24,000 bases of DNA, taken from the NCBI GenBank assembly GCA_036149055.1, contig JAYZQJ010000235.1:1-24000 (forward strand), written 5' to 3'. Positions 2-23,700 of the stretch are shown here, piece after piece; within the stretch, counting starts at the first letter, position 1, and the number at the start of each line of letters is the position of its first letter. A program made the translations under genes and the position numbers. Under the pieces are notes generated by a model, which was given only the letters and a program-made list of their open reading frames with translations, searched no databases and was not told the DNA's origin. Source of the DNA: Myxococcota bacterium (GTDB taxonomy: Bacteria > Myxococcota_A > Polyangia > Polyangiales > Sandaracinaceae).

Positions 2-787
2 GCCGCCGCGCCGCAGGCCGCCCAGGCTCAGCCGGCGCCCGAGCCCGCCGCGCGCCCGGCCTCGGAGCCGGTCCCCGCGAGCCGCGCGCCCTCCGAGCGC
101 CCCCGGCCGGTCGCCACCGCCGACGGCAGCGCGCAGGCGAGCCTCGTCTCCATCCTCAAGGACGGCTCGGACGGGCGGCGCTACCCGATCTACGGCGAGG
201 TCACCGACATCGGACGCGAGGAGGGGCAGATCATCCTCGGCGACGATCCCTACCTCTCGCCCCGCCACGCGCGGCTGTCGCAGAAGAACGGCCAGCTGCT
301 CATCCGGGATCTCGACAGCGTCAACGGCGTCTACGTGCGGATCCGGGAGCCCGTGGACCTGTCCGACGGTGATATGATGCTGCTCGGTCAGCAGGTCCTC
401 CGCTTCGAGGTCCTCGCCGAGACGGAGCTACCGCTGGGTCCCGCGACGCAACATGGGGTGATGGTCTTCGGGACGCCGGAGGTGCAGCGCATCGCGCGGC
501 TGCTCCAGTACACGACGGAAGGGGTGGGCCGCGACGTCCATTACCTGTATCGTGACGAGACCGTGATCGGCCGCGAACAGGGTGACCTGGTCTTCACGGA
601 CGACCCCTTCATGTCCCGACGACACGCCGCGATCACCATCGATCGAGCGAGCCGCCGCTTCGTGCTCCGCGACCTCGGCTCGTCGAACGGCACGGCGGTG
701 CGCTTCCGCGGCGAGCGGGCGCTCCGCCCCGGCGACCAGTTCCGGGTGGGCCGGCATCTCTTCCGCTTCGAGGGAGGCGCGACGTGA
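2..787 (+). CDS. Tandem-FHA domain protein (5'-truncated by the window)
   Basis: Frame is open from base 2, upstream of the listed 335 start. A Pro/Ala linker is followed by two FHA domains with canonical motifs: IGR..SPRHA..SVNG and IGR..SRRHA..SSNG. The stop overlaps the next start (GTGA). Confidence 0.92.
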   Translation, partial: AAAPQAAQAQPAPEPAARPASEPVPASRAPSERPRPVATADGSAQASLVSILKDGSDGRRYPIYGEVTDIGREEGQIILGDDPYLSPRHARLSQKNGQLLIRDLDSVNGVYVRIREPVDLSDGDMMLLGQQVLRFEVLAETELPLGPATQHGVMVFGTPEVQRIARLLQYTTEGVGRDVHYLYRDETVIGREQGDLVFTDDPFMSRRHAAITIDRASRRFVLRDLGSSNGTAVRFRGERALRPGDQFRVGRHLFRFEGGAT

Positions 788-2916
788 GCGGGAAGAAGCC
801 GTCCAAGCGGCCGCATTCGGGCTCGAGCCTCACCGACGCGGTGGTCGCCGCGCTGGCCGAGGTCGAAGACAAGACCGAGCCGAAGGGCGAGCCTCCGCCC
901 GCGGCCGAGGCCGGCTGCGCGCAGACCGACCAGCAGAAGAAGGGCGCCGCGCCGCCCCCGATGGTCGCCGACGCCCCGGGCGCCGCGGCCGAGCCTGCGC
1001 CGGCTGGCCTGAACGGCGCCAACGGGTTCCGCAGCGGGCCCGGCTCGTTCGCCGACCTCGCGCGGCGCTGGGCCGGTGGCGCCCCGATGGCCGTGCCCAC
1101 GGCGGAGGCCGGCGCAGCCGCCGCCGAGCCGCCCCCCGCCGAGCCCGCGCCCGAGCCGCCGCTCGCCAAGGCGGAGCCCGAGCCGGCCGCCGAGCCCGCC
1201 CCCGAGCCGGCGAGGGTGCAGACCGAGGCCGCCGACGAGCCGCCTCCGGCCGATGACCCGACCGCGACCATCGAAGACGCCTCCCTCGAGATCTCCTCCA
1301 GCGAGGAGCCGGGGCCCATCGAGGTCGTCTACTACGGGCGCACCGACGTCGGCCTCGTGCGCGAGCACAACGAGGACAACTTCACCGTCGCCGACCTCGA
1401 CGCCGAGGTGCGGGACAACGAGACCCCCCGCGAGACGGTGGTCGGCGATCGCGGCCTCGTCTTCGCGGTGTGCGACGGCATGGGCGGTGCGGCCGCCGGT
1501 GAGGTCGCCAGCCAGATGGCGGTCGACACCGTGCACGAGGTGATGAGCGGCACGCCCCCGGCGGACCGCGACGACTTCGCGCGCCGGCTCGTCCGCGCCA
1601 TCGAGGAGGCGGGCTACCGGATCTTCAGCGCCGCCAAGATGGACCGCACCCGCCGCGGCATGGGGACCACGGCGACGGTCGCCGGCCTGGTCGACAACGT
1701 GCTCTTCGTGGGTCAGGTGGGCGACAGCCGCGCCTACGTCCTGCGCGGCGATCAGTTCGAGATGATCACCAAGGACCAGTCCCTGGTGAACCAGCTGATC
1801 GAGGCCGGGCAGCTGACCGAGGAGGAGGCCGAGGCCTTCGAGCACTCGAACATCATCCTCCAGGCGCTCGGCACGACCGAGGAGGTCACGGTCGACCTGA
1901 CCTTCCTCGAGGTCCGCAAGGGTGACCGCCTGATGATGTGCTCGGACGGCCTCTGCGGGCTCGTGCACGCCGACATGATGAAGGAGGTGCTCCAGGGCAC
2001 GCCTTCGCAGGAGGAGGCGGCGCAGAAGCTCATCCAGATGGCCAACGCCGGCGGCGGCCACGACAACATCACGGTCATCATCGCCGACTTCACCGGCGAC
2101 GGGCTCTCCGAGGCCGAGAGCGCCAAGGTGCTCTACCAGCAGTACCCGCTCCCGCCCGACGAGTCGGGGCGCGACCCCTCGATGCCGCCGCGCGAGACCT
2201 CGATGAAGGCCGGCGCGACCAAGCCGGGCGCCGACGTGAAGCGCAACGGCGACGACGTCGAGATCGCCACGCCTTCGAGCGGCGGCGGCAAGGCGTGGAT
2301 CCTCCTGCTCCTGGTGATCGTGCTGCTCGCGCTGATCGCCGGCGCGTGGCTCGCGATGAACAACATGGAGGGCGCGGACGCCGACGCCGATCCGGAGACG
2401 CCGCCCGCGCCGATCGTCGAGGAGGAGCTCCCGCCGGAGGAGGAGCTGCTCGACGATCCGATCATCGAGGAGGTCCCGCCGGCCACGGCCGAGCGCGGCT
2501 CCGTCGCGATCAGCACCGACCTCGAGGAGGGGACCCTCTACGTGAACGGGCTGGTGCACGGGCCGCTCACGGACGGCATGGAGCTGGAGCTGCCGCCGGG
2601 CGCGTACGAGCTCTCGGCGCGGGACGGCGAGGCGCTGGTGGCGAGCCAGACGGTGACGCTGGAGGCGGGCTCGGCGGTGGACGTGAGCCTCAGCATGCCC
2701 GCGGGCGAGCTGGACGCGCCGCCCGAGGAGGCGGCCCCGGCGGAGACGCAGGAGCCCGAGACGACGGAGCCGCCGCGGAACGGCACCGACCGCAATGACA
2801 CCGGTCGCAATGGCGCTGGCCGCAATGGTCGCGGTGGCAACGGGCGCAGTGGCAACGGACGCGGTGGCCGCGGTCAGCGCGGCGACGGCCCCCTCCCCAA
2901 CAACCCCTTCCTCTGA
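784..2916 (+). CDS. Membrane-anchored PP2C/PPM (Stp1-type) Ser/Thr phosphatase with PEGA-like external domain
   Basis: PPM motifs REHNED, VCDGMGG, VGDSRAY, CSDGL and HDNIT are present. TM helix WILLLLVIVLLALIAGAWL. PEGA-like segment (LYVNG..LELPPGAYEL). Long Pro/Ala/Glu-rich N-terminus. Confidence 0.93.
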   Translation: MSGKKPSKRPHSGSSLTDAVVAALAEVEDKTEPKGEPPPAAEAGCAQTDQQKKGAAPPPMVADAPGAAAEPAPAGLNGANGFRSGPGSFADLARRWAGGAPMAVPTAEAGAAAAEPPPAEPAPEPPLAKAEPEPAAEPAPEPARVQTEAADEPPPADDPTATIEDASLEISSSEEPGPIEVVYYGRTDVGLVREHNEDNFTVADLDAEVRDNETPRETVVGDRGLVFAVCDGMGGAAAGEVASQMAVDTVHEVMSGTPPADRDDFARRLVRAIEEAGYRIFSAAKMDRTRRGMGTTATVAGLVDNVLFVGQVGDSRAYVLRGDQFEMITKDQSLVNQLIEAGQLTEEEAEAFEHSNIILQALGTTEEVTVDLTFLEVRKGDRLMMCSDGLCGLVHADMMKEVLQGTPSQEEAAQKLIQMANAGGGHDNITVIIADFTGDGLSEAESAKVLYQQYPLPPDESGRDPSMPPRETSMKAGATKPGADVKRNGDDVEIATPSSGGGKAWILLLLVIVLLALIAGAWLAMNNMEGADADADPETPPAPIVEEELPPEEELLDDPIIEEVPPATAERGSVAISTDLEEGTLYVNGLVHGPLTDGMELELPPGAYELSARDGEALVASQTVTLEAGSAVDVSLSMPAGELDAPPEEAAPAETQEPETTEPPRNGTDRNDTGRNGAGRNGRGGNGRSGNGRGGRGQRGDGPLPNNPFL
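2775..2883 (+). repeat. Degenerate 15-nt (5-aa) tandem repeat in the phosphatase C-tail
   Basis: Encodes RNGTD RNDTG RNGAG RNGRG GNGRS GNGRG GRGQR. Units begin cggaac/cgcaat/ggcaac at 15-nt intervals. Confidence 0.75.

Positions 2917-11155: not shown

Positions 11156-11159
<4 letters not shown>
10815..11159 (-). CDS. Cupredoxin-domain lipoprotein (CupA-like)
   Basis: This is the real 114-aa end of the 727-aa shadow ORF. Lipobox LVAC, then EGC..FTCGMDM copper motif. ATGA overlap with the cusA stop. Confidence 0.9.
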
Positions 11160-14967
<3,808 letters not shown>

Positions 14968-14971
<4 letters not shown>

Positions 14972-16746
14972 CGCGCGCCCTCCGCCGACAGGAAGCCGCC
15001 CGGCGGCACCGTCTCGCGCACCGATCCGCAGGTGAGCATCGAGGCGCCGAAGTAGGCGTTGTCCACCGCCTCTCCGGCCTGCACCCACGCCGCGCCGCGG
15101 TCGTCGAAGGCCATCGGGCAGTGGGTCAGCCGGAGCGGCGCGTCGAGCGGGTTGCCGAAGGCGCGGAGCACGTCGGCGATCGCGGCGCTCAGCGGCTCGA
15201 AGGCGCCGCGGGCCGCCTCGAGCGACGCCGCGGACCCGATCCGCGCGGCCTCGGCCCGGATCCGCCCCGAGAGCTCGGCCCAGCGCGCCGCGGCGGCCTC
15301 GGGCGCGTCGGGGGTGAAGGCGGCGGTCGCGTCGTCGGCGGCGCCGGCCGAGCGCCGCGCGGCCTCCAGGTCGTCGTCCGCGAGCGCCCGCTGCACGTCG
15401 AGGTAGCGCTCGACGACGGGCCCGAGCCCGGCGCGGAACGCCGCAGGCAACTCGGCGTGCACGTCCGCGAAGGGATCGGCCTCGGACGCGGTCATGAGGC
15501 TGTCGCCGCCGCGGATTTGCAGATCGGCGTCGAGCGCGAACGCGCCCTCGGTGACCACGCGCTCACCCTCGGCGAGGCCGGCGACGACCGGGTAGTGATC
15601 GCCCGCGCGCGGCCCGAGGCGGACGGGGCGCGCGACGTAGGTGGGCGCGGGCCCGCCCTCGACCTCGACGTAGACGAGGGCGCGCCGTCCGGTGAAGAGC
15701 GGCGCGCTCGCCGGGACCACGAGGGGCTGGGTCGCGCCCGCCTCGGCGCTCGCGTCGAGGGTGGCCTCGACGAACATGCCCGGGCGGAGGCGGCCGTCCG
15801 GGTTGGCGACCTCGACCCGCACCCGGGCGGTCCGGGTGCGCGGATCGACGACCGGGTCGAGGAAGGCGACGCGTCCGTCCAGGGGCTCGCCGGAGAGGCC
15901 CTGCACCTCGAGGCGCACGCTCTGGCCGACCTCGAGGCGCGCGAGGTCCTGTTCGTACGCGTCGAGCTGCACCCACAGGCGATCGAGGTCGGCCAACCGG
16001 TAGAGCGGGGTGCCGGTCTGCACGTAGGCGCCCTCGGTCGTGAGCCGCTCGATGACGGTGCCGCCGAAGGGGCTGCGGATCGTGATCCGCCGGGCGGGCG
16101 ACTCGGCGGCCTCGAGACGCGTCAGCTCCGCGTCGGGCACACCGAGGAGCCGGAGGCGCTGCCGCGCCGCCTCGAGGGTCGCGCGCGCGCCGGACCGGGC
16201 CAGCTCGCTCGCGCCCTCCAGCCGCTCGAGCTGTCGTCGCGCGGTGATGAGGTCCTGCTGCGCCGCGTAGATCTCGGGGCTGTAGAGGGTCGCCACCGCC
16301 TGGCCGCGGCGGATCCGCTGCCCCGTGACCCGGACGTGGAGGCGCTCGATGCGCCCGCCGACCCAGGCGGTGACGGTGTCGAGGGTGGTCTCGTCGAGCG
16401 CCACCCGACCGAGCAGCCGGAGCGCGCCGCCGCCGCCGAGCCGTCGGACCGGCGTGGTGCGCACGCGCGCGAGGGCGGCCGCGCGGGGGCTGAGGGTGAC
16501 CTCGCCCGGCCCGGGCGCGTCGCCCGCGCGGAGCGGGATGAGGTCCATGCCGCAGATCGGGCAGAGGCCGGGCTCCGGCTGGCGCACCTGGGGATGCATC
16601 GCGCAGGTCCAGGTGGTCTCGGTCTCGTCGTGGGTGTGCTCGGCGTTGCCGTCGGGCGCGGTGCAGCGACCGACGGCGAAGGCGGCGAGCGCGGCGAGTC
16701 CCAGCGCTGCCAGCCAAGGAGCGGACCGCTTCAGCGCGGGCTTCAT
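14968..16746 (-). CDS. cusB: CusB-type periplasmic adaptor with N-terminal heavy-metal-binding domain and C-terminal DUF3347-like domain
   Basis: WTCAMHP..CPICGMDL, YSPEI..AQ, LRPGMFV, and C-terminal HCPMAFD..W..NAYFGASMLTCG. ATGA overlap with the cusC stop. Confidence 0.92.
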
Positions 16747-18074
16747 CGGCTCCTCCCGAGCTCGCTGCGTGGCGCGCCGACGAGGGCCTCGAGCCGGGCC
16801 CAGGCGGCGCCGTGGGCCGCGCGGGCGCGGGCCGCCTCGACGCTGATCTCGAGCAGCTCGCGCTGAGCGAGCAGGACCGCGGCGACCGGGGCGCGGCCGG
16901 TGACCTGGGCGCCGATCACCGACTCGTAGGCGCCGCGCGCCTGGGGGATCAGGGTGCGCTCGTAGAGGCGCAGGCGGCGGTGGGTGTCGCGGATGCGGCT
17001 CGTCGCCTCGGCCAGGGCGGCCCGGGCCGACAGCAGCGCGGCCTCGGCGTCGGCGCGCTCGGCCACGCCCTCCGCCTCCGCCGCGCGCTGGCGGTCCTCG
17101 TAGGCGCCCTGCCAGAGCGGGATCGAGACGCCGACGTCGAAGACGAGCGCGTCGTCCCCGCTCCCCGGCACCGGGCTCGCGGCCTCGCCGGTCTCGATCC
17201 AGTCGACGCCGACCACGAACCGCGGGAGGCGCTCGGCCTCGAAGGCGCGGGCTCGGGCGTCGTGCGCCTCGGCGCGGGCCGCGAACGCGAGCAGCTCCGG
17301 GTGGGCGGTGAGCCGCGCCTCGAGCGCGGAGGCGTCGGGGGGGAGCGCGGGGTCGGCCGCCTCGCGCGTGGTCGGGAGCGGCTCGTCGGGCCCGGCCGCG
17401 ATCGAGGCGCGCAGCGCCGCCTCGGCCGCGCGCTCCTCCTCGTCGAGCCCGGCGAGCGCGTCGTCGAGCCGGGCCCGGCGCAGCTCCAGCTGGGCCGCGT
17501 CGGCGAGCGTCGCCTGCCCCACCTCGATGCGAGCCCGGACCGACTCGGCCGCCGCCTCCAGGAGCGAGACCTGCTCGCGCTGCGCGTCGCGGACCGCGCG
17601 CAGGGCCCAGAGCCGCCACCACGCGTCGGCCACCTCGGCGCGGAGCCGGAGCGCGCGCGCCTCGAACGCGCGCTGGGCGGCGCGCGCCGCGTGGGACTGC
17701 GCGTCCGCCGCCGCGGTCAGCCGGGTGGGCCAGGGGAAGGACTGGCGCACCATGACGCGGTGCCGCTGCGGCCCGACGCGGGTCTGGACCGGGAGCGCGT
17801 AGAAGCCGTAGCTCACCGTCGGGTCCGGCAGCGCGCGCGCCGCGCCGATGCGCAGCGTCTCCGCGCGCCAGCGCTGGTAGCCGGCGCGGAGCGAGGGGCT
17901 CCGGGCGAGCGCGCGCGCGACGTAGCCGTCGAGGCTGCCGTCGAGCGGCGCCTCCTCTTCGGCGGGACGCAGGCGGGCGCGGGCTTCACCGAGGTCGCGG
18001 TGGAGCGCGTCTTCGTGGACCGCGCCGCAGCCCACGAGGGCCAGCGCGATCATCCAGGGGATCGATCGAGGCAA
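16743..18074 (-). CDS. TolC-family outer-membrane factor (CusC-like lipoprotein)
   Basis: OMF motifs ALPDP, QSFPWP, SIPLW and LIPQA. TTG at 18074 has GGAG 7 nt upstream and gives MPRSIPWMIALALVGC (lipobox). Alternative starts are 18125 and 18053. Confidence 0.88.
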   Translation of the reverse strand: MPRSIPWMIALALVGCGAVHEDALHRDLGEARARLRPAEEEAPLDGSLDGYVARALARSPSLRAGYQRWRAETLRIGAARALPDPTVSYGFYALPVQTRVGPQRHRVMVRQSFPWPTRLTAAADAQSHAARAAQRAFEARALRLRAEVADAWWRLWALRAVRDAQREQVSLLEAAAESVRARIEVGQATLADAAQLELRRARLDDALAGLDEEERAAEAALRASIAAGPDEPLPTTREAADPALPPDASALEARLTAHPELLAFAARAEAHDARARAFEAERLPRFVVGVDWIETGEAASPVPGSGDDALVFDVGVSIPLWQGAYEDRQRAAEAEGVAERADAEAALLSARAALAEATSRIRDTHRRLRLYERTLIPQARGAYESVIGAQVTGRAPVAAVLLAQRELLEISVEAARARAAHGAAWARLEALVGAPRSELGRSR

Positions 18075-18078
18075 GGTT

Positions 18079-18180
18079 CTTCTCCGAGACGGAATGCGGC
18101 TCGGCGCCTCCGGACGGAGGCGCACGGATCGAGCCCTCGCGCGCAGGTCGCGCGGGGCTCGCCGCGTCTCAGATCAGAAG
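18079..18180 (-). promoter_or_regulatory. Predicted multi-branch mRNA structure sequestering the cusC Shine-Dalgarno
   Basis: Outer stem pairs 18165-18180 with 18079-18091. Inner hairpins at 18130-18161 (13 bp, one bulge) and 18104-18123 (8 bp, perfect). Confidence 0.65.
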
Positions 18181-18546
18181 GACGGTCGCTCGGAGCGCGC
18201 GGTCCGGTGGTCGCTCCGGCACGCTCTGGAGGGGCGTGCGAACGACCCGCGCCGGCGCCGGCGGGACCGACACCGCGGCCGCGATCCGGACCGACGGAGC
18301 AGGCGCCACCGAGAGGGCGGTGCTCGAGGCGTGAGGATCGCGCTCGTCGACCCAGCCGTAGTCGCAGCAGTCGCCGCCCGGCTGGGTGAAGCGCGTCTCG
18401 CTCGAGAGGTGGCAGCAGGCCCGCTCGCGATGCTCGAGCGTCCAGACGTCCGCGCACGCCTCCGGGTGCCCGATGGCCGCGAACACGACCGCCTGCACGC
18501 CGAGGAGCGTGAAGAACATCAGTCGTCGTGCCCGGGCCGGCGGCAT
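18169..18546 (-). CDS. Cys-pair/RPP leader protein upstream of the metal efflux operon (DUF2946/CruR/CutF-like layout)
   Basis: Signal-like N-terminus, ACCH and DCCD motifs, Pro/Ala linker, and C-terminal ERPPDRALRATVLLI. First gene of the operon. Confidence 0.75.
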   Translation of the reverse strand: MPPARARRLMFFTLLGVQAVVFAAIGHPEACADVWTLEHRERACCHLSSETRFTQPGGDCCDYGWVDERDPHASSTALSVAPAPSVRIAAAVSVPPAPARVVRTPLQSVPERPPDRALRATVLLI

Positions 18547-18553
18547 CGCTCGG

Positions 18554-18582
18554 ATCCTATGGACGCGTCACCGCCGCCGCAA
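18554..18582 (-). promoter_or_regulatory. Putative sigma70-type promoter of the leader-cus operon
   Basis: TTGCGG-N17-TAGGAT, ending 7 nt before ATG 18546. Confidence 0.6.
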
Positions 18583-18588
18583 GTCGGG

Positions 18589-18987
18589 TCATTCGGGGAG
18601 CCCGGCTTCGAGCCAGGCGACGAGGCGCTCGCGGGAGGCGTCGTCGGGGTAGGGGCCCGGGCCGACCGGGAACTGTCCGGCGGCCGGGGAGCCGCCGCAG
18701 CCGTCGGCGGTCGTCGGGCTGACGCCGCAGCGGATGCGGTCCATGTCGCGGCGCACGTGGGTGAGGGTGGTGTAGTCGCGGGACGCGCCGTCGTGGCACT
18801 CGTTGCAGTAGGTCGCGAACCAGTCGGCGGCGAACGTCTCCCAGGTGTCGGGAGGCGGACCGGCGTCCTCCATCGAGCCCGAGTCGGCGCTCCCCGCGTC
18901 GGTCGAGGGCGCGCCCGCGTCGGGGGCGGGTGCCTCACCGTCGCAGGCCGAGGCGAGGAGGAGGGCGATCGCGAAGAGGCGGCTCAT
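18589..18987 (-). CDS. Monohaem c-type cytochrome lipoprotein
   Basis: ATG 18987, lipobox ASAC, DAG-rich linker, CNECH haem motif, C-terminal LVAWLEAGLPE. Confidence 0.8.
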   Translation of the reverse strand: MSRLFAIALLLASACDGEAPAPDAGAPSTDAGSADSGSMEDAGPPPDTWETFAADWFATYCNECHDGASRDYTTLTHVRRDMDRIRCGVSPTTADGCGGSPAAGQFPVGPGPYPDDASRERLVAWLEAGLPE

Positions 18988-19161: not shown

Positions 19162-21609
19162 GTGCATCAGCCCTCGGACAGCAGCACCGACCGGGATCTG
19201 ACCTGGGACGAGATCGACGCGCTGATCGGCGGCGAGGACGACTCGCTCGGCGATACCGGCACCCATTCGGTGATCCGCGGTGAGGACGAGCGCCTCGAGA
19301 CCCTCACCCCGACCCCGCGCGCCATCCTCCGCACCGAGCAGGTGACGGTGGATCGGAGCGGCGGCTACGGCGCGATGATGGAGACCTTCGCCTGCCCGGT
19401 GGTCGAGCTCTTCTTCGACTACGGCGGCCAGCGCATCAACGCCTCCGACCCCCGCGACCGCTTCTTCAAGGCGGCGGCGGGCGGCATGAAGGTCGTGCGC
19501 CGCGACTTCGCGACCGAGACCCGGGCGCGCTGCCTGCTCGAGAGCTTCGGCGCGGTCGACCTCGAGTGCATGACGGAGTGGGCGGTCCCGCCGGGCAGCC
19601 GCGCGCACTACCTGCTCAAGTGCGACGGCGACGTGCACGACTACTGCGGGTTCACCGCCTGGGTCGTGCCGCAGCTCCGCAAGGTCGGCTGGGCGGTCGA
19701 GCTCGAGAGCGGCTACCCCTACCAGGTCGTCGGCGCCGACGCGCCCGACTGGTACGCCCGGGTCGAGCCCGACGAGCAGCGCCCCGACTGGTTCGGGCTC
19801 GAGCTCGGCGTCGAGCTGTCGGGCCGGCGGGTGAACCTGCTCCCGGCGCTGGTCGACCTCCTCGGCACCACCGCGGACGGCTCCACCCTCGCGAGCCTCG
19901 CCTCGCGCAAGAAGGCGATCGCGGTGCCGCTCCCCGACGGGCGCTACCTGACCGTGCCGCCCGAGCAGATCCAGGCGCTCCTGCGCGTGATCAGCGAGCT
20001 CTACGAGGGCGATGACGTCGACCCCGAGGTGCTCTCGTTCAGCAAGCTGCAGGCGGCCGCGCTCCCGCGCCTCGACGAGATCTTCCTCGACCCGGCGGAC
20101 GGCGTCAGCGACCTCCGCTGGGAGGGCGCGTCCTCGCACACGATGCGCGAGGTCGGCGAGATCCTCTCCACGCCGGTCTCGAAGATCGAGGCGCCGACCG
20201 GCCTGCGCGCCACCCTGCGCAGCTACCAGCAGACCGGCGTCGAGTGGCTCCAGCACCTCCGCACCTGCGAGGTCGGCGGCGTGCTCGCCGACGACATGGG
20301 CCTCGGCAAGACGCTCCAGACCATCGCCCACCTCGCGATCGAGAAGGAGAGCGGCCGGCTCGAGAAGCCCGCGCTCGTGGTCGCGCCGACCAGCCTCTGC
20401 CGCAACTGGGAGCGGGAGATCGCGAAGTTCGCGCCCTCCCTCTCGACGGTGGTCCTGCAGGGGAGCAAGCGCCACGCGCTCTTCGACGAGATCGAGAAGA
20501 CCGACGTCGTCATCACGAGCTACCCGATCCTGGTGCGCGACGAGGAGCGCTTCGCCGAGCACGAGTGGCACCTCCTCATCCTCGACGAGGCGCACACCAT
20601 CAAGAACACGCGCAGCCAGGCGCACCAGGCGGCCAAGCGGCAGGAGGCGACGCACCGCCTCTGCATCACCGGCACCCCGGTCGAGAACCACCTGGGCGAG
20701 CTCTGGGCGCTCTTCGACTTCCTGAACCCGGGCCTGCTCGGCGACGAGCTGAGCTTCCGGCGCTGGTACCGCATCCCGATCGAGCAGCTCGGCGACGAGG
20801 AGCGGCTCGCGACGCTGCGGCAGATGGTGAGCCCGTACATGATGCGGCGCCTCAAGCAGGAGGTCGCCACCGAGCTGCCGCCGAAGACGGAGCTGCTGCG
20901 CCCGGTCACGCTCGGCGGCAAGCAGCGAGAGCTCTACGAGAGCATCCGGGTCGCCGCCCACGGGGACATCCGCAAGCTCATCCAGAAGAAGGGCCTCGCC
21001 GCCTCGACGGTCCCGATCCTCGACGCGCTGACCAAGCTGCGCCAGGTCTGCTGCGATCCGCGCCTCGTGCCGATGCGGGCCGCGCGCGAGGTGAAGCGCT
21101 CGGCGAAGTACGAGCTGCTGATGGAGCTGGTCGAGAGCCAGCTCGGCCGCGGCCACCGCATCCTGATCTTCAGCCAGTTCACCCGGATGCTCGCGCTGAT
21201 CGCGCGGGGCCTCGACGAGCGCAAGATCGGCTACCTCTCGCTGACCGGCCAGAGCAAGGACCGCCAGGGGCTCGTCGACGCCTTCGAGGGGGGCCAGGCG
21301 GACGTCTTCCTGATCAGCCTCAAGGCGGGCGGCGTGGGCCTGACGCTCACCAGCGCCGACACCGTGATCCACTACGACCCGTGGTGGAACCCGGCGGCCC
21401 AGGACCAGGCCACCGACCGCGCCTACCGCATCGGGCAGAAGAAGCCGGTGCACGCCTACAACCTCTTCGTCCAGGGCAGCGTCGAGGAGCGCATGCTCGC
21501 GCTCCAGGAGCGGAAGCGCCGCCTGGCGCAGGGGATCCTCAGCGGCGCCGGCGGGGGGCTGGCCCTGAGCGAGGACGACCTGGAGGAGCTCTTTGCCCCG
21601 CTGGGGTGA
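19162..21609 (+). CDS. SNF2-family (SF2) helicase/ATPase
   Basis: Motifs LADDMGLGKT, LDEAH, TGTPVEN, FSQF, SLKAGGVGL, DPWWNPA and QATDRAYRIGQ. Exact start is uncertain. Confidence 0.95.
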   Translation: MHQPSDSSTDRDLTWDEIDALIGGEDDSLGDTGTHSVIRGEDERLETLTPTPRAILRTEQVTVDRSGGYGAMMETFACPVVELFFDYGGQRINASDPRDRFFKAAAGGMKVVRRDFATETRARCLLESFGAVDLECMTEWAVPPGSRAHYLLKCDGDVHDYCGFTAWVVPQLRKVGWAVELESGYPYQVVGADAPDWYARVEPDEQRPDWFGLELGVELSGRRVNLLPALVDLLGTTADGSTLASLASRKKAIAVPLPDGRYLTVPPEQIQALLRVISELYEGDDVDPEVLSFSKLQAAALPRLDEIFLDPADGVSDLRWEGASSHTMREVGEILSTPVSKIEAPTGLRATLRSYQQTGVEWLQHLRTCEVGGVLADDMGLGKTLQTIAHLAIEKESGRLEKPALVVAPTSLCRNWEREIAKFAPSLSTVVLQGSKRHALFDEIEKTDVVITSYPILVRDEERFAEHEWHLLILDEAHTIKNTRSQAHQAAKRQEATHRLCITGTPVENHLGELWALFDFLNPGLLGDELSFRRWYRIPIEQLGDEERLATLRQMVSPYMMRRLKQEVATELPPKTELLRPVTLGGKQRELYESIRVAAHGDIRKLIQKKGLAASTVPILDALTKLRQVCCDPRLVPMRAAREVKRSAKYELLMELVESQLGRGHRILIFSQFTRMLALIARGLDERKIGYLSLTGQSKDRQGLVDAFEGGQADVFLISLKAGGVGLTLTSADTVIHYDPWWNPAAQDQATDRAYRIGQKKPVHAYNLFVQGSVEERMLALQERKRRLAQGILSGAGGGLALSEDDLEELFAPLG

Positions 21610-21632
21610 CGAGCCGACGGATCTCGCCGCGC

Positions 21633-21654
21633 GTCGTAGGCTCGCCCCTACGAC
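21633..21654. other. Intergenic hairpin
   Basis: gtcgtagg-ctcgcc-cctacgac, a perfect 8-bp stem just after the helicase stop. No U-tract. Confidence 0.4.
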
Positions 21655-21742
21655 CCTCGTTCCGCGTGCCCCCATCGGGCCCCGGCGTCGGGTCGGCCCG
21701 CATCTTGCGGCTGGTCACGGCGGTGCGGGCGGAGAACGTCTG

Positions 21743-22603
21743 ATGGAGAACGACAGCTCAAGCATGCGCCTCACGCGGGTGACCCCGCGTCGAGGACGCG
21801 CGCTCCTGGCGAACAAATACGAGCTGCGCGACCTGGTCGCGGTCGGCACGCTGACCGAGCTCGCGGTCGCGCATCAGCCCCTCATCGATCGGCGGGTCGC
21901 GCTCGACCTCGCGACCGGGAGCGGCCGGCGCGCGCCCTCGCGCTCGGGGGTGCGGAGCTACTTCCCGCTCGAGGTGGCCAAGCTCGAGCACCCCGCCCTC
22001 GCCAAGGTCTACGAGCTCTGCTGCGACGGTGACGCGGGCGCGTTCGTGGTGCTCGAGCACCTCGACGGGCCGACCCTGCAGGAGCAGGTGACCGAAGACG
22101 GGCCGCTCCGTCCCGCCGATGCCATCGCGCTCGGCCGGGCCCTGCTCGAGGTCGTCGCGGTGTTCCACGAGGCGGGGCTCGCCCACGCCGACCTGACCCC
22201 GAGCCACGTGGTCGCCGGCCGCCGGGGCACCCGGCTGCGTCACCACCCGCTCCGGGAGCTGATGGCGAGCGGCGAGGGGCCGCGGAGCAGCAGCTACAAC
22301 GCGCCCGAGCAGATCCTGCGGGAGCCGGCCAAGGCGACGACCGACCTGTTCCGGATCGCCTCGGTGCTGTTCTTCGCCATGACCGGCGCGCCCCCCTTCG
22401 CGGGCGACGACCTCGACGTGGCGGTGCTGCGGGGAAGCCGGCCGGCGGCGTCGGAGCTGCGCCCGGGGCTGTCGCGGGACGTCGACGACTTCTTCGACCG
22501 GGCGCTCGCCCGCGATCCCATCGACCGCTTCGGCACCGCCGCCGAGATGCGCGAGGCGCTTCGACTCCTCGCCCTCTTCTCCGGCTATGCTCGTCACGCA
22601 TGA
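21743..22603 (+). CDS. Hanks-type pseudokinase
   Basis: GGAG precedes ATG 21743. Kinase fold cues are present (KYEL, LEHPAL, LEHLDG, YNAPEQ, TGAPPF, DPIDRF), but it has VALD for VAxK, HADLTPSH for HRDxKPxN, and no DFG. Confidence 0.85.
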   Translation: MENDSSSMRLTRVTPRRGRALLANKYELRDLVAVGTLTELAVAHQPLIDRRVALDLATGSGRRAPSRSGVRSYFPLEVAKLEHPALAKVYELCCDGDAGAFVVLEHLDGPTLQEQVTEDGPLRPADAIALGRALLEVVAVFHEAGLAHADLTPSHVVAGRRGTRLRHHPLRELMASGEGPRSSSYNAPEQILREPAKATTDLFRIASVLFFAMTGAPPFAGDDLDVAVLRGSRPAASELRPGLSRDVDDFFDRALARDPIDRFGTAAEMREALRLLALFSGYARHA

Positions 22604-23700
22604 GCAGCGGCGAATGGAGCGCGCCCGCGTTCGGGAGGTTTCGCCTCCTCGGCGTCGCGGGTCGGGGCGGCATGGCCGTCGTCTACCGGGCGCAGACCGT
22701 CGGCGCGTCCGGCTTCTCGCGGCCCGTCGCGCTGAAGCAGCTGCTCCCCAAGCTCGTCCTGCAGGAGGACTTCGTCCGGCTCTTCGTCGAGGAGGCGCGG
22801 GTCTCGGCCCGGCTCGATCACCCGAACATCGTGCAGGTGCACGACTTCGGCACCGACGCGCACGGCCACTACTTCCTCGTGCTCGAGTGGGTCGAGGGGC
22901 TCGACCTCGGGCGCTGGCTGGACGGCCTGCCGCGCGGCGTGAAGCCGGAGTGGACGCACGTGGCCTCGCTGGGCTTGCAGATCCTCGACGCGCTCGACTT
23001 CGCGCACCGTCACACCGGGGACGCGGGCGAGTCGGCTCCGGTGATCCACCGCGACATCAGCCCCGGCAACATCCTCCTCGGCGCGCACGGTCACGTGAAG
23101 CTCGCGGACTTCGGCCTCGCGCGGGCGATGGACCGGACCCGCATGACCGACGAGGGGGTGATCAAAGGCAAGGTCTCTTACGTCGCGCCCGAGCTGGCGA
23201 AGGGCGCCGAGCCGAGCCCCCGCACCGATCTCTTCTCGCTGGGCGCCACGCTCTGGGAGACGCTCGCCCGCCGGCGCCTGTTCGACGGACCGAACGACCT
23301 GACGGTGTTGATGAAGATCCTGCGGGAGCCCATCCCGAAGCTCGCCAGCGCCCGCCCCGAGCTGCCCGCCGCGCTCTGCGCGGTGATCGACAAGGCGCTC
23401 GCCAAGGCGCCCGACGACCGCTGGCCGACCGCGCGGGCGATGCGCCGGGCCCTCGTCGAGGTCCTTCTCGACGCGCGTCGCCTCCCGGAGCCGCTCGAGA
23501 TCGCGCGCACCGTCGCGGCGGCGCGCGGCGCGAAGCGGCCCCCGTCCGAGCCGAGCCACGTGGTGCACACGCCCTCGCTGATGACCGACCTGCAGGCCCT
23601 CGCGCCGGACGACAGCGACGAGATCCCCTTCGACCTCGTCCCCGCCCAGGCGAACTCGGAGCCCTTCGAGCTCATCCCGCTCATCGATCCAGACTCCTGA
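22600..23700 (+). CDS. Cytoplasmic Ser/Thr protein kinase
   Basis: GRGGMAVV, VALK, HRDISPGN, DFG and APE are all intact. No TM segment. ATGA overlap with the pseudokinase. Confidence 0.95.
   Translation: MSSGEWSAPAFGRFRLLGVAGRGGMAVVYRAQTVGASGFSRPVALKQLLPKLVLQEDFVRLFVEEARVSARLDHPNIVQVHDFGTDAHGHYFLVLEWVEGLDLGRWLDGLPRGVKPEWTHVASLGLQILDALDFAHRHTGDAGESAPVIHRDISPGNILLGAHGHVKLADFGLARAMDRTRMTDEGVIKGKVSYVAPELAKGAEPSPRTDLFSLGATLWETLARRRLFDGPNDLTVLMKILREPIPKLASARPELPAALCAVIDKALAKAPDDRWPTARAMRRALVEVLLDARRLPEPLEIARTVAAARGAKRPPSEPSHVVHTPSLMTDLQALAPDDSDEIPFDLVPAQANSEPFELIPLIDPDS

Follow-up and report, generated by a model that had tools for sequence, protein, structure and literature searches.

Among described regulatory leader peptides, those closest to the element considered here are CruR (Bp2923) of Bordetella and CutF of Rhodobacter capsulatus. 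CruR carries a RAPP motif 3 residues from its end with a conserved spacing of 45 between cysteines and core (PMC9426467), and its arrest has been shown (PMC12992588). For CutF, a similar spacing of 45 is argued to put the motif just outside the membrane (PMC9973294), and a core-to-stop distance of 2 follows from the mutant name PP115P and a length of 118 residues (bioRxiv 10.1101/2025.02.05.636593; PMC8456105). RAPP, RGPP and RAGP are reported to support arrest and to be avoided in proteomes, and in ApdA and ApdP a second-position proline leaves arrest partly intact (PMC12992588). Here we describe a cysteine-rich leader open reading frame (ORF) ahead of a cusCBA efflux operon on a 24,000-nt stretch from a Myxococcota bacterium (Polyangiales, Sandaracinaceae; assembly GCA_036149055.1, contig JAYZQJ010000235.1), hereafter the window, which is the entire 24-kb contig and limits the neighbourhood that was analysed. 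An earlier note on this DNA had proposed a copper-sensing leader-peptide switch. With a probability of roughly 0.55, we consider that the leader is a cis translational switch in which metal-released stalling at an Arg-Pro-Pro core gates cusC.

Like CutF (PMC8456105), the leader is a small first ORF, predicted to be exported, with a Cys motif, a C-terminal Pro-Pro and, by prediction, a stem hiding the next Shine-Dalgarno (SD) sequence. It differs from CutF in its cysteine pattern (C..CC..CC versus CxxxC), in the distance of Pro-Pro from the stop (11 codons versus 2), in an anti-SD arm that overlaps the stop codon, in its target (a resistance-nodulation-division (RND) pump versus an oxidase) and in its predicted sign, release being on here whereas copper-induced stalling is on in CutF. 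Measured by the rules for CutF-like proteins (PMC9973294), the leader is short (125 aa; limit <150), has Pro-Pro (residues 113-114) within its last 15 residues and is followed on the same strand by a gene 94 nt away (limit <1000); under the Sec-signal rule, it shows a basic and hydrophobic helix at residues 4-25 in both its sequence and the AlphaFold2 model. As to the CutF mechanism, a stem hiding the downstream SD was computed for this leader, and its predicted stall site is not near enough to melt that stem. Ozturk et al. 2023 name CusC/CzcC/SilC-type outer-membrane efflux protein (OEP) genes as the most frequent CutF-like neighbours, with CusD and SilD labelled (PMC9973294); a CutF-like leader before a CusC-type gene is thus a setting already catalogued, whose novelty the earlier note overstated, and this leader family may already be among the published CutF-like proteins, which are grouped into 29 sequence clusters.

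The leader would share with CruR a RAPP-type arrest, proposed to be relieved by copper, and resembles it in a conserved Cys-core spacing, a poorly structured product and a nonpolar C-terminus (PMC9426467). Release of CruR turns an importer off through Rho, whereas release here would turn an exporter on through a helix over a ribosome-binding site (RBS). In place of the CruR combination of CXXC and RAPP ~3 residues before the C-terminus, the leader has C..CC..CC and, in this copy, RPPD 11 codons before the stop. Kinship with DUF2946, on which the earlier note had leaned, found no backing from hidden Markov models (HMMs): PF11162 (gathering cut-off 23.7 bits) did not match the leader, one of 44 members reached E 0.31 and one of 26 distant relatives 14.3 bits. 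The order of elements in HYC_CC_PP (NF047658, cut-off 28 bits) is similar, with a hydrophobic start, C, CC, CC, PP and a short hydrophobic tail; neither the leader nor 44 aligned members matched this model, and 3 of 26 distant relatives did so weakly (14-17.8 bits, E 0.004-0.05), all below the cut-off. No paper was returned by a full-text literature search for the name HYC_CC_PP. Pfam and NCBIfam assigned the leader to no family. Its neighbours in the atlas were hypothetical proteins, among which DUF8199 (47% of members) and DUF2946 (23%) are no more than leads.

Judged by its sequence features, the leader ORF is a real coding gene and well conserved, since GC by codon position is 0.74/0.59/0.89, a same-genus copy differs by 31 synonymous and 16 non-synonymous codon changes, and in nine close homologues (44-87% identity, one labelled Sandaracinaceae) C31, both CC pairs, RPPDR and T..LLI are all invariant. 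The 125-aa first ORF with a signal-like N-terminus, two Cys-Cys pairs and RPP 11 codons before the stop was thus read correctly in the earlier note, and the pattern CC..CC..RPP..LLI, whose conservation it proposed to check upstream of cusC homologues, holds in these nine. The residues concerned are CC44-45, CC60-61, an additional lone C31, R112-P113-P114-D115 and the tail ALRATVLLI; R112-P113-P114 (18213-18205) is encoded by CGA CCA CCG and followed by 11 sense codons (D115-I125) and TGA. The N-terminus holds 3 Arg and an 18-residue hydrophobic stretch, modelled as a helix (residues 4-25) at a predicted local distance difference test score (pLDDT) of ~90; beyond it the AlphaFold2 model is mostly unstructured (overall pLDDT 67.6, predicted template modelling score 0.30) and was too poor as a fold-search query. 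Codon rarity, also pointed out earlier, holds as an observation for this genome (CGA 11.5% of Arg codons, CCA 4.5% of Pro codons, CCG the commonest Pro codon) and is a minor point: across nine RPPD loci the Arg codon is CGT in 3, CGG in 3, CGA in 2 and CGC in 1, and the first Pro codon is CCA in 5. Rare codons were ruled out as the mechanism because the Arg codon varies in this way and the RAPP of CruR uses frequent codons. A close homologue at L002:6001-6362, at a contig end, has a frameshift in both leader and cusC and is possibly an assembly or binning artefact.

The family set comprised 47 distinct leader loci, this one included, mostly from Polyangiales; it was obtained from 65 HMM rows by removing 12 that were judged to be false matches, 2 truncated at contig ends, 2 belonging to a single frameshifted copy and 2 near-duplicates. 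In the order, profile matches were found in 25 of 401 genomes with the first alignment and 48 of 401 with a wider one. A phylum-drawn profile search matched 8 of 401 genomes; its sole match outside the order was judged false, so that nothing was gained beyond the order. A pattern scan of metagenomes yielded 70 stretches; 6 belonged to the family, including one cut by a contig end. An OEP gene lies directly downstream of 41 leaders (40 of the 46 others and this locus); after four leaders come a small lipoprotein gene and an adaptor gene, one leader is separated from its OEP gene by an unknown gene, and one stands before an unknown gene and a second leader. The last arrangement is a pair of tandem paralogues, L126/L131 (G324:C139:22262-23911), the first before a 153-aa exported protein of unknown family and the second before an OEP gene. 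Among 44 sequences C31, C60 and C61 are invariant and C44 and C45 at least 90% conserved. At the position of RPPD the 47 loci have RAPP (14), RAGP (10), RGPP (7), RPPD (7), RPPP (3) or other Pro motifs (6), so that a known arrest core (R-[AG]-P-P or RAGP) stands there in 31. The last CC lies 49-54 residues before the P-site Pro in 42 of 47. In 46 loci the core stands 11-17 codons ahead of the stop, and 46 leaders end in TGA. The tails of L119 and L023 hold both RPPD and RAPP, a possible intermediate between cores. Of the leader-peptide switch first proposed, a conserved leader ahead of a CusA-type pump with an arrest-type motif is thus supported by comparison; this copy's RPPD is not a canonical RAPP/RGPP core. 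Those arrest cores, together with an N-terminal export signal and a stem over a downstream SD, both predicted here, recur in SecM, ApdA and ApdP (PMC12992588, PMC10987492). In the described cases the stalled ribosome opens the stem, whereas in this family the distance from core to helix is too great for that, and the leaders have a Cys cluster in addition.

Across the family, the last codons and stop of the leader are predicted to pair with the RBS of the next gene, with locus-matched complementarity. At this locus, most of the SD GGAGA is predicted to be covered by pairing of 18173-18166 with 18083-18090 (probability 0.91-1.0), and 18179-18176 pair with 18077-18080 at 0.54-0.95; the cusC start was picked by SD and lipoprotein signal, and family start codons were likewise hand-chosen with SD and signal features as guides. 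A stretch of 201 nt centred on the region of the leader stop had a fold z-score of -4.25, and 0 of 200 shuffles were as stable. Over the 47 loci, whose gaps between the leader and the next gene span 59-310 nt, the RBS of that gene is paired most strongly by the region of the stop (-20.6 versus -13.8 to -17.5 kcal/mol upstream), and tails pair better with their own RBS (-20.0 kcal/mol) than with foreign ones (-15.3 kcal/mol; 0 of 20000 permutations), an own-partner advantage not found in four upstream control windows. The arms are compensated, UCUGAGACG facing CGUCUCGGA at this locus and UCCGAGGCG facing CGCCUCGGA in L008.

The leading edge of a ribosome lies ~15 nt past its P site. With the edge so placed and the ribosome stalled at the core, the pair probability of the helix stays at 0.98-1.0, and the energy of opening the RBS, as a family mean, is 13.5 kcal/mol for the stalled ribosome versus 8.0 for one at the stop. 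The drop exceeds 1 kcal/mol in 38 of 47 loci and 3 kcal/mol in 30, versus 22 and 7 of 70 control gene pairs (mean change 0.3). In 41 shorter-gap loci the mean opening energy is 13-14 kcal/mol up to 11 codons from the stop, 12.0 at 9 and 9.8 at 7, and at this locus the range is 11-15 with the P site at codons 108-114 and 6-8 with it at 121-125. By computation, the helix is thus weakened only by a ribosome within ~7 codons of the stop; since the core lies 11-17 codons away, a stalled ribosome is too distant to melt it, and a switch in which the stall is off and run-through on is favoured. This polarity had been given in the earlier note, whose reader did not see the helix, and the helix fits it.

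The proposed sequence of events is as follows. Without metal, a ribosome would stall at the Arg-Pro-Pro core of the leader, leaving the stop-codon helix downstream closed and the RBS of cusC hidden. Copper or silver would bind the cysteine cluster, by then probably exported, and release the stall by folding or pulling force; the released ribosome would run to the stop, melt the helix and allow the pump to be translated, an opening we liken to translational coupling by RNA unfolding, a known mechanism (PMC12548453). Export, arrest, metal binding and release by folding or pulling force are taken by analogy from CruR, CutF and RAPP-type peptides. The direction we infer from the geometry and from the need to switch an exporter on: since the pump is needed when copper is present, the metal should be what releases the stall, in line with the proposal for CruR.

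The strongest alternative, which we nevertheless hold to be unlikely, is the polarity of CutF, in which a metal-induced stall opens the helix; the pause would then lie near the stop, for example as slow termination with Arg-Pro-Pro in the tunnel, or arise by queuing. CutF itself stalls on copper and so opens the stem over the cutO SD, and a lasting stall would open an RBS better than a passing ribosome; the T..LLI tail, invariant in close homologues, and the near-universal TGA also speak for a pause there. Set against these points, the cores correspond to motifs whose site of action is the peptidyl transferase centre, a core-stop distance that varies by several codons fits a fixed tunnel contact at termination badly, and the mean opening energies above remain high at 11 and 9 codons from the stop.

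Several results weigh against a metal-released stall that gates cusC through the helix. This copy reads RPPD and thus has Asp at the A-site position that Pro or Gly occupies in known cores, and PPD is described as a pause dependent on, and relieved by, elongation factor P (EF-P) in Escherichia coli (PMC4140641), so that arrest in this copy may be weaker, perhaps only an EF-P-sensitive pause. Copper is reported to induce stalling in CutF (bioRxiv 10.1101/2025.02.05.636593), and with an arrest peptide tested by Fujiwara et al. the downstream gene was expressed no more than basally when the ribosome did not stall (PMC10987492). Nine of the 47 loci have no opening gain above 1 kcal/mol. A duplex energy of -20 kcal/mol was reached by 48% of 300 loosely chosen control pairs and is not unusual in absolute terms; absolute energy was therefore dropped as evidence in favour of contrasts and opening energies. 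Of 150 strict controls, 6% reach the contrast of this locus, only 6 tails pair best with their own RBS among all 47, and native codons do better than synonymous recoding in just 27 of 47, so that selection on synonymous codons for the anti-SD is weak. The loci share kinship, and P-values therefore overstate. Finally, one of four RNA runs has a single contig (18037-18983) that continues past the leader to 18037.

CzcI, CusD and SilD of Cupriavidus metallidurans are likewise small ORFs upstream of heavy-metal RND operons, and a mechanistic test of CusD or SilD was not found in the literature. CzcI, upstream of czcCBA, is reported to be periplasmic and to quench the pump, with more mRNA for czcI than for czcC (PMC10127602). 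The leader could accordingly be a periplasmic metal-binding helper, a chaperone or a CzcI-like pump modulator, with the helix serving ordinary translational coupling, for which RNA unfolding is a known route, and the Pro motif a pause or linker. That the cysteines are the best-conserved residues of the leader would suit such a role. CzcI, described as a pump modulator, has no C-terminal Pro motif (PMC9973294), the part of the leader that would be mature is predicted to be unstructured, and most family members carry cores that proteomes avoid, at a fixed distance from the cysteines; we regard a helper as quite unlikely.

Upstream of the leader, a promoter-like element lies so close to the ATG that the transcript is possibly leaderless (Table 1). 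A TTGCGG-17-TAGGAT-like layout recurs in 5 of 47 loci, and TAnnnT stands 4-9 nt before a start in 11 of 47, versus 0-5 at other offsets; a consensus scanner called neither a promoter nor an intrinsic terminator at the leader locus. RNA-library contigs from two studies cover the leader at 18164-18533, 18168-18501 and 18180-18528, the last composed of two overlapping contigs. Their ends at 18164-18180 are a weak hint of a leader-rich transcript, since contigs show neither ends nor levels and the libraries may include DNA; absent RNA cover over cusC was given no weight. Control might also be exerted on the RNA, with the same leader and polarity: a stall would leave the mRNA untranslated and open to Rho termination or decay, the helix being secondary. 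CruR works through Rho (PMC9426467), the intergenic regions of the family are long, no intrinsic terminator was called and contigs end near the stop in three of four runs; such ends may equally reflect a strong hairpin or low depth, and Rho has no need of RBS pairing matched to the locus, which leaves this course very unlikely.

The features of the locus are collected in Table 1. Three methionines of CusA align with M573, M623 and M672 of E. coli CusA (alignment to CusA structure chains), which we take to be its Cu(I)/Ag(I) site, and this triad alone points to Cu/Ag as the signal; the protein has 1271 aa and is ~220 residues longer than E. coli CusA, with an insertion between two aligned halves. 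The efflux operon named in the earlier note was upheld, all three genes being recognized by profile and cusA above its cut-off. Twenty longer regions were fetched and gave 15 scorable RND genes, 2 cut by contig ends, 1 split and 2 regions with no pump in range; 14 of the 15 scorable pumps keep the Met triad. In a subgroup from 13-Mb genomes (L124, L133, L135 and L137) the leader is richer in His and Asp, carries RAGP and has a spacing of 61 residues, and the genes after it encode a small lipoprotein and an adaptor; the only pump scored in this subgroup lacks the Met triad and looks CzcA-like, and the subgroup is possibly a version for another metal. The least probable reading is that the leader senses a different signal, be it the redox or disulfide status of the envelope, a soft metal such as Ag, Au, Zn or Cd, or Sec export capacity. 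In its favour, CC pairs are capable of disulfide formation, which has been proposed for CutF, the pump at one Sorangium-type locus lacks the triad, and SecM-type RAGP peptides monitor export (PMC12992588); against it, nearly all scorable pumps are CusA-type and CusB has an HMBD domain.

Table 1. Features of the leader-cusCBA locus in window coordinates
Feature	Position	Strand	Basis and remarks
Leader ORF, 125 aa, first gene of the cusCBA unit	18169..18546	-	Sequence and conservation
Basic-then-hydrophobic N-terminal helix, residues 4-25, predicted signal peptide or anchor	18472..18537	-	Sequence and AlphaFold2
Cysteine cluster C31, C44-C45, C60-C61, candidate metal site, 51 residues before P113	18364..18456	-	Conservation
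Candidate arrest core R-P-P-D	18202..18213	-	Family alignment of core motifs
5' arm of predicted blocking helix: last codons L123-I125, TGA and 3 nt beyond	18166..18179	-	Pair probabilities
Leader-cusC intergenic region, 94 nt, two internal hairpins inside the blocking helix	18075..18168	-	Folding
3' arm: SD GGAGA (18085-18081) and likely cusC start TTG (18074-18072)	18072..18090	-	Folding
Promoter-like TTGCGG-17 nt-TAGGAT, 7 nt before the leader ATG	18554..18582	-	Layout comparison
cusC, outer-membrane efflux lipoprotein (OEP)	16743..18074	-	PF02321, E 4e-34
cusB, adaptor with HMBD, HlyD_D23 and DUF3347 domains	14968..16746	-	Pfam/NCBIfam; start overlaps cusC stop
cusA, heavy-metal efflux (HME) RND pump	11156..14971	-	TIGR00914, 764 bits versus cut-off 701

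Just upstream of the leader, a predicted lipoprotein of 132 aa (18589-18987, minus strand) has one CxxCH heme-type motif and two more cysteines and no Pfam match; a gap of 42 nt separates its stop from the leader ATG, and a single RNA contig runs across both genes. Further away lie an SNF2 helicase and two Ser/Thr kinase-like ORFs (19162-23700, plus strand) and, at the left end, FHA and PP2C genes (2-2916, plus strand), all of them signalling genes of a sort usual in myxobacteria and without apparent connection to the pump. A Pfam scan of 26 of the 85 window ORFs revealed no regulator gene, in agreement with the earlier statement that no cusRS, cueR or csoR gene lies near the operon. Genome-wide (96% complete), no CusR/CopR-type or CueR match above cut-off was found; the only copper-type transcription factor above cut-off was one CsoR-family gene on another contig (G000:C77:2523-5332), which directly precedes a long ORF that reads like a heavy-metal P-type ATPase. 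Two other heavy-metal RND operons are present, one at a contig end and one beside a two-component pair. A relaxed scan of the genome for other such leaders gave this leader and two unconvincing ORFs, so that a comparison of geometry within the genome was not possible.

The leaders are best read as cis-acting, arrest-type leaders akin to CruR and CutF, set apart by their long tails and by a helix at the stop codon, features from which inverted logic is predicted. In the literature searched, neither a test of such a leader before an RND pump nor a release-on arrest switch was found. The broader proposition, that exported Cys-rich arrest peptides of myxobacteria run a Cu/Ag pump with inverted logic, metal-triggered release turning the pump on by read-through, we advance tentatively, at slightly worse than even odds. 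Were it true, the leader would replace a regulator of the CusRS or CueR type, RPPD would be a further natural arrest core, and a CruR-like sensing step would give on or off depending only on the core-to-stop distance. CruR and CutF disagree on whether copper releases or induces stalling, and the family offers a sharp test: changing PP to AA is predicted to turn the pump on and an early stop to turn it off, the reverse of SecM and CutF. If the prediction is true, spacing alone would set the sign of a metal-sensing arrest switch, and many metal efflux operons without a regulator would be explained.

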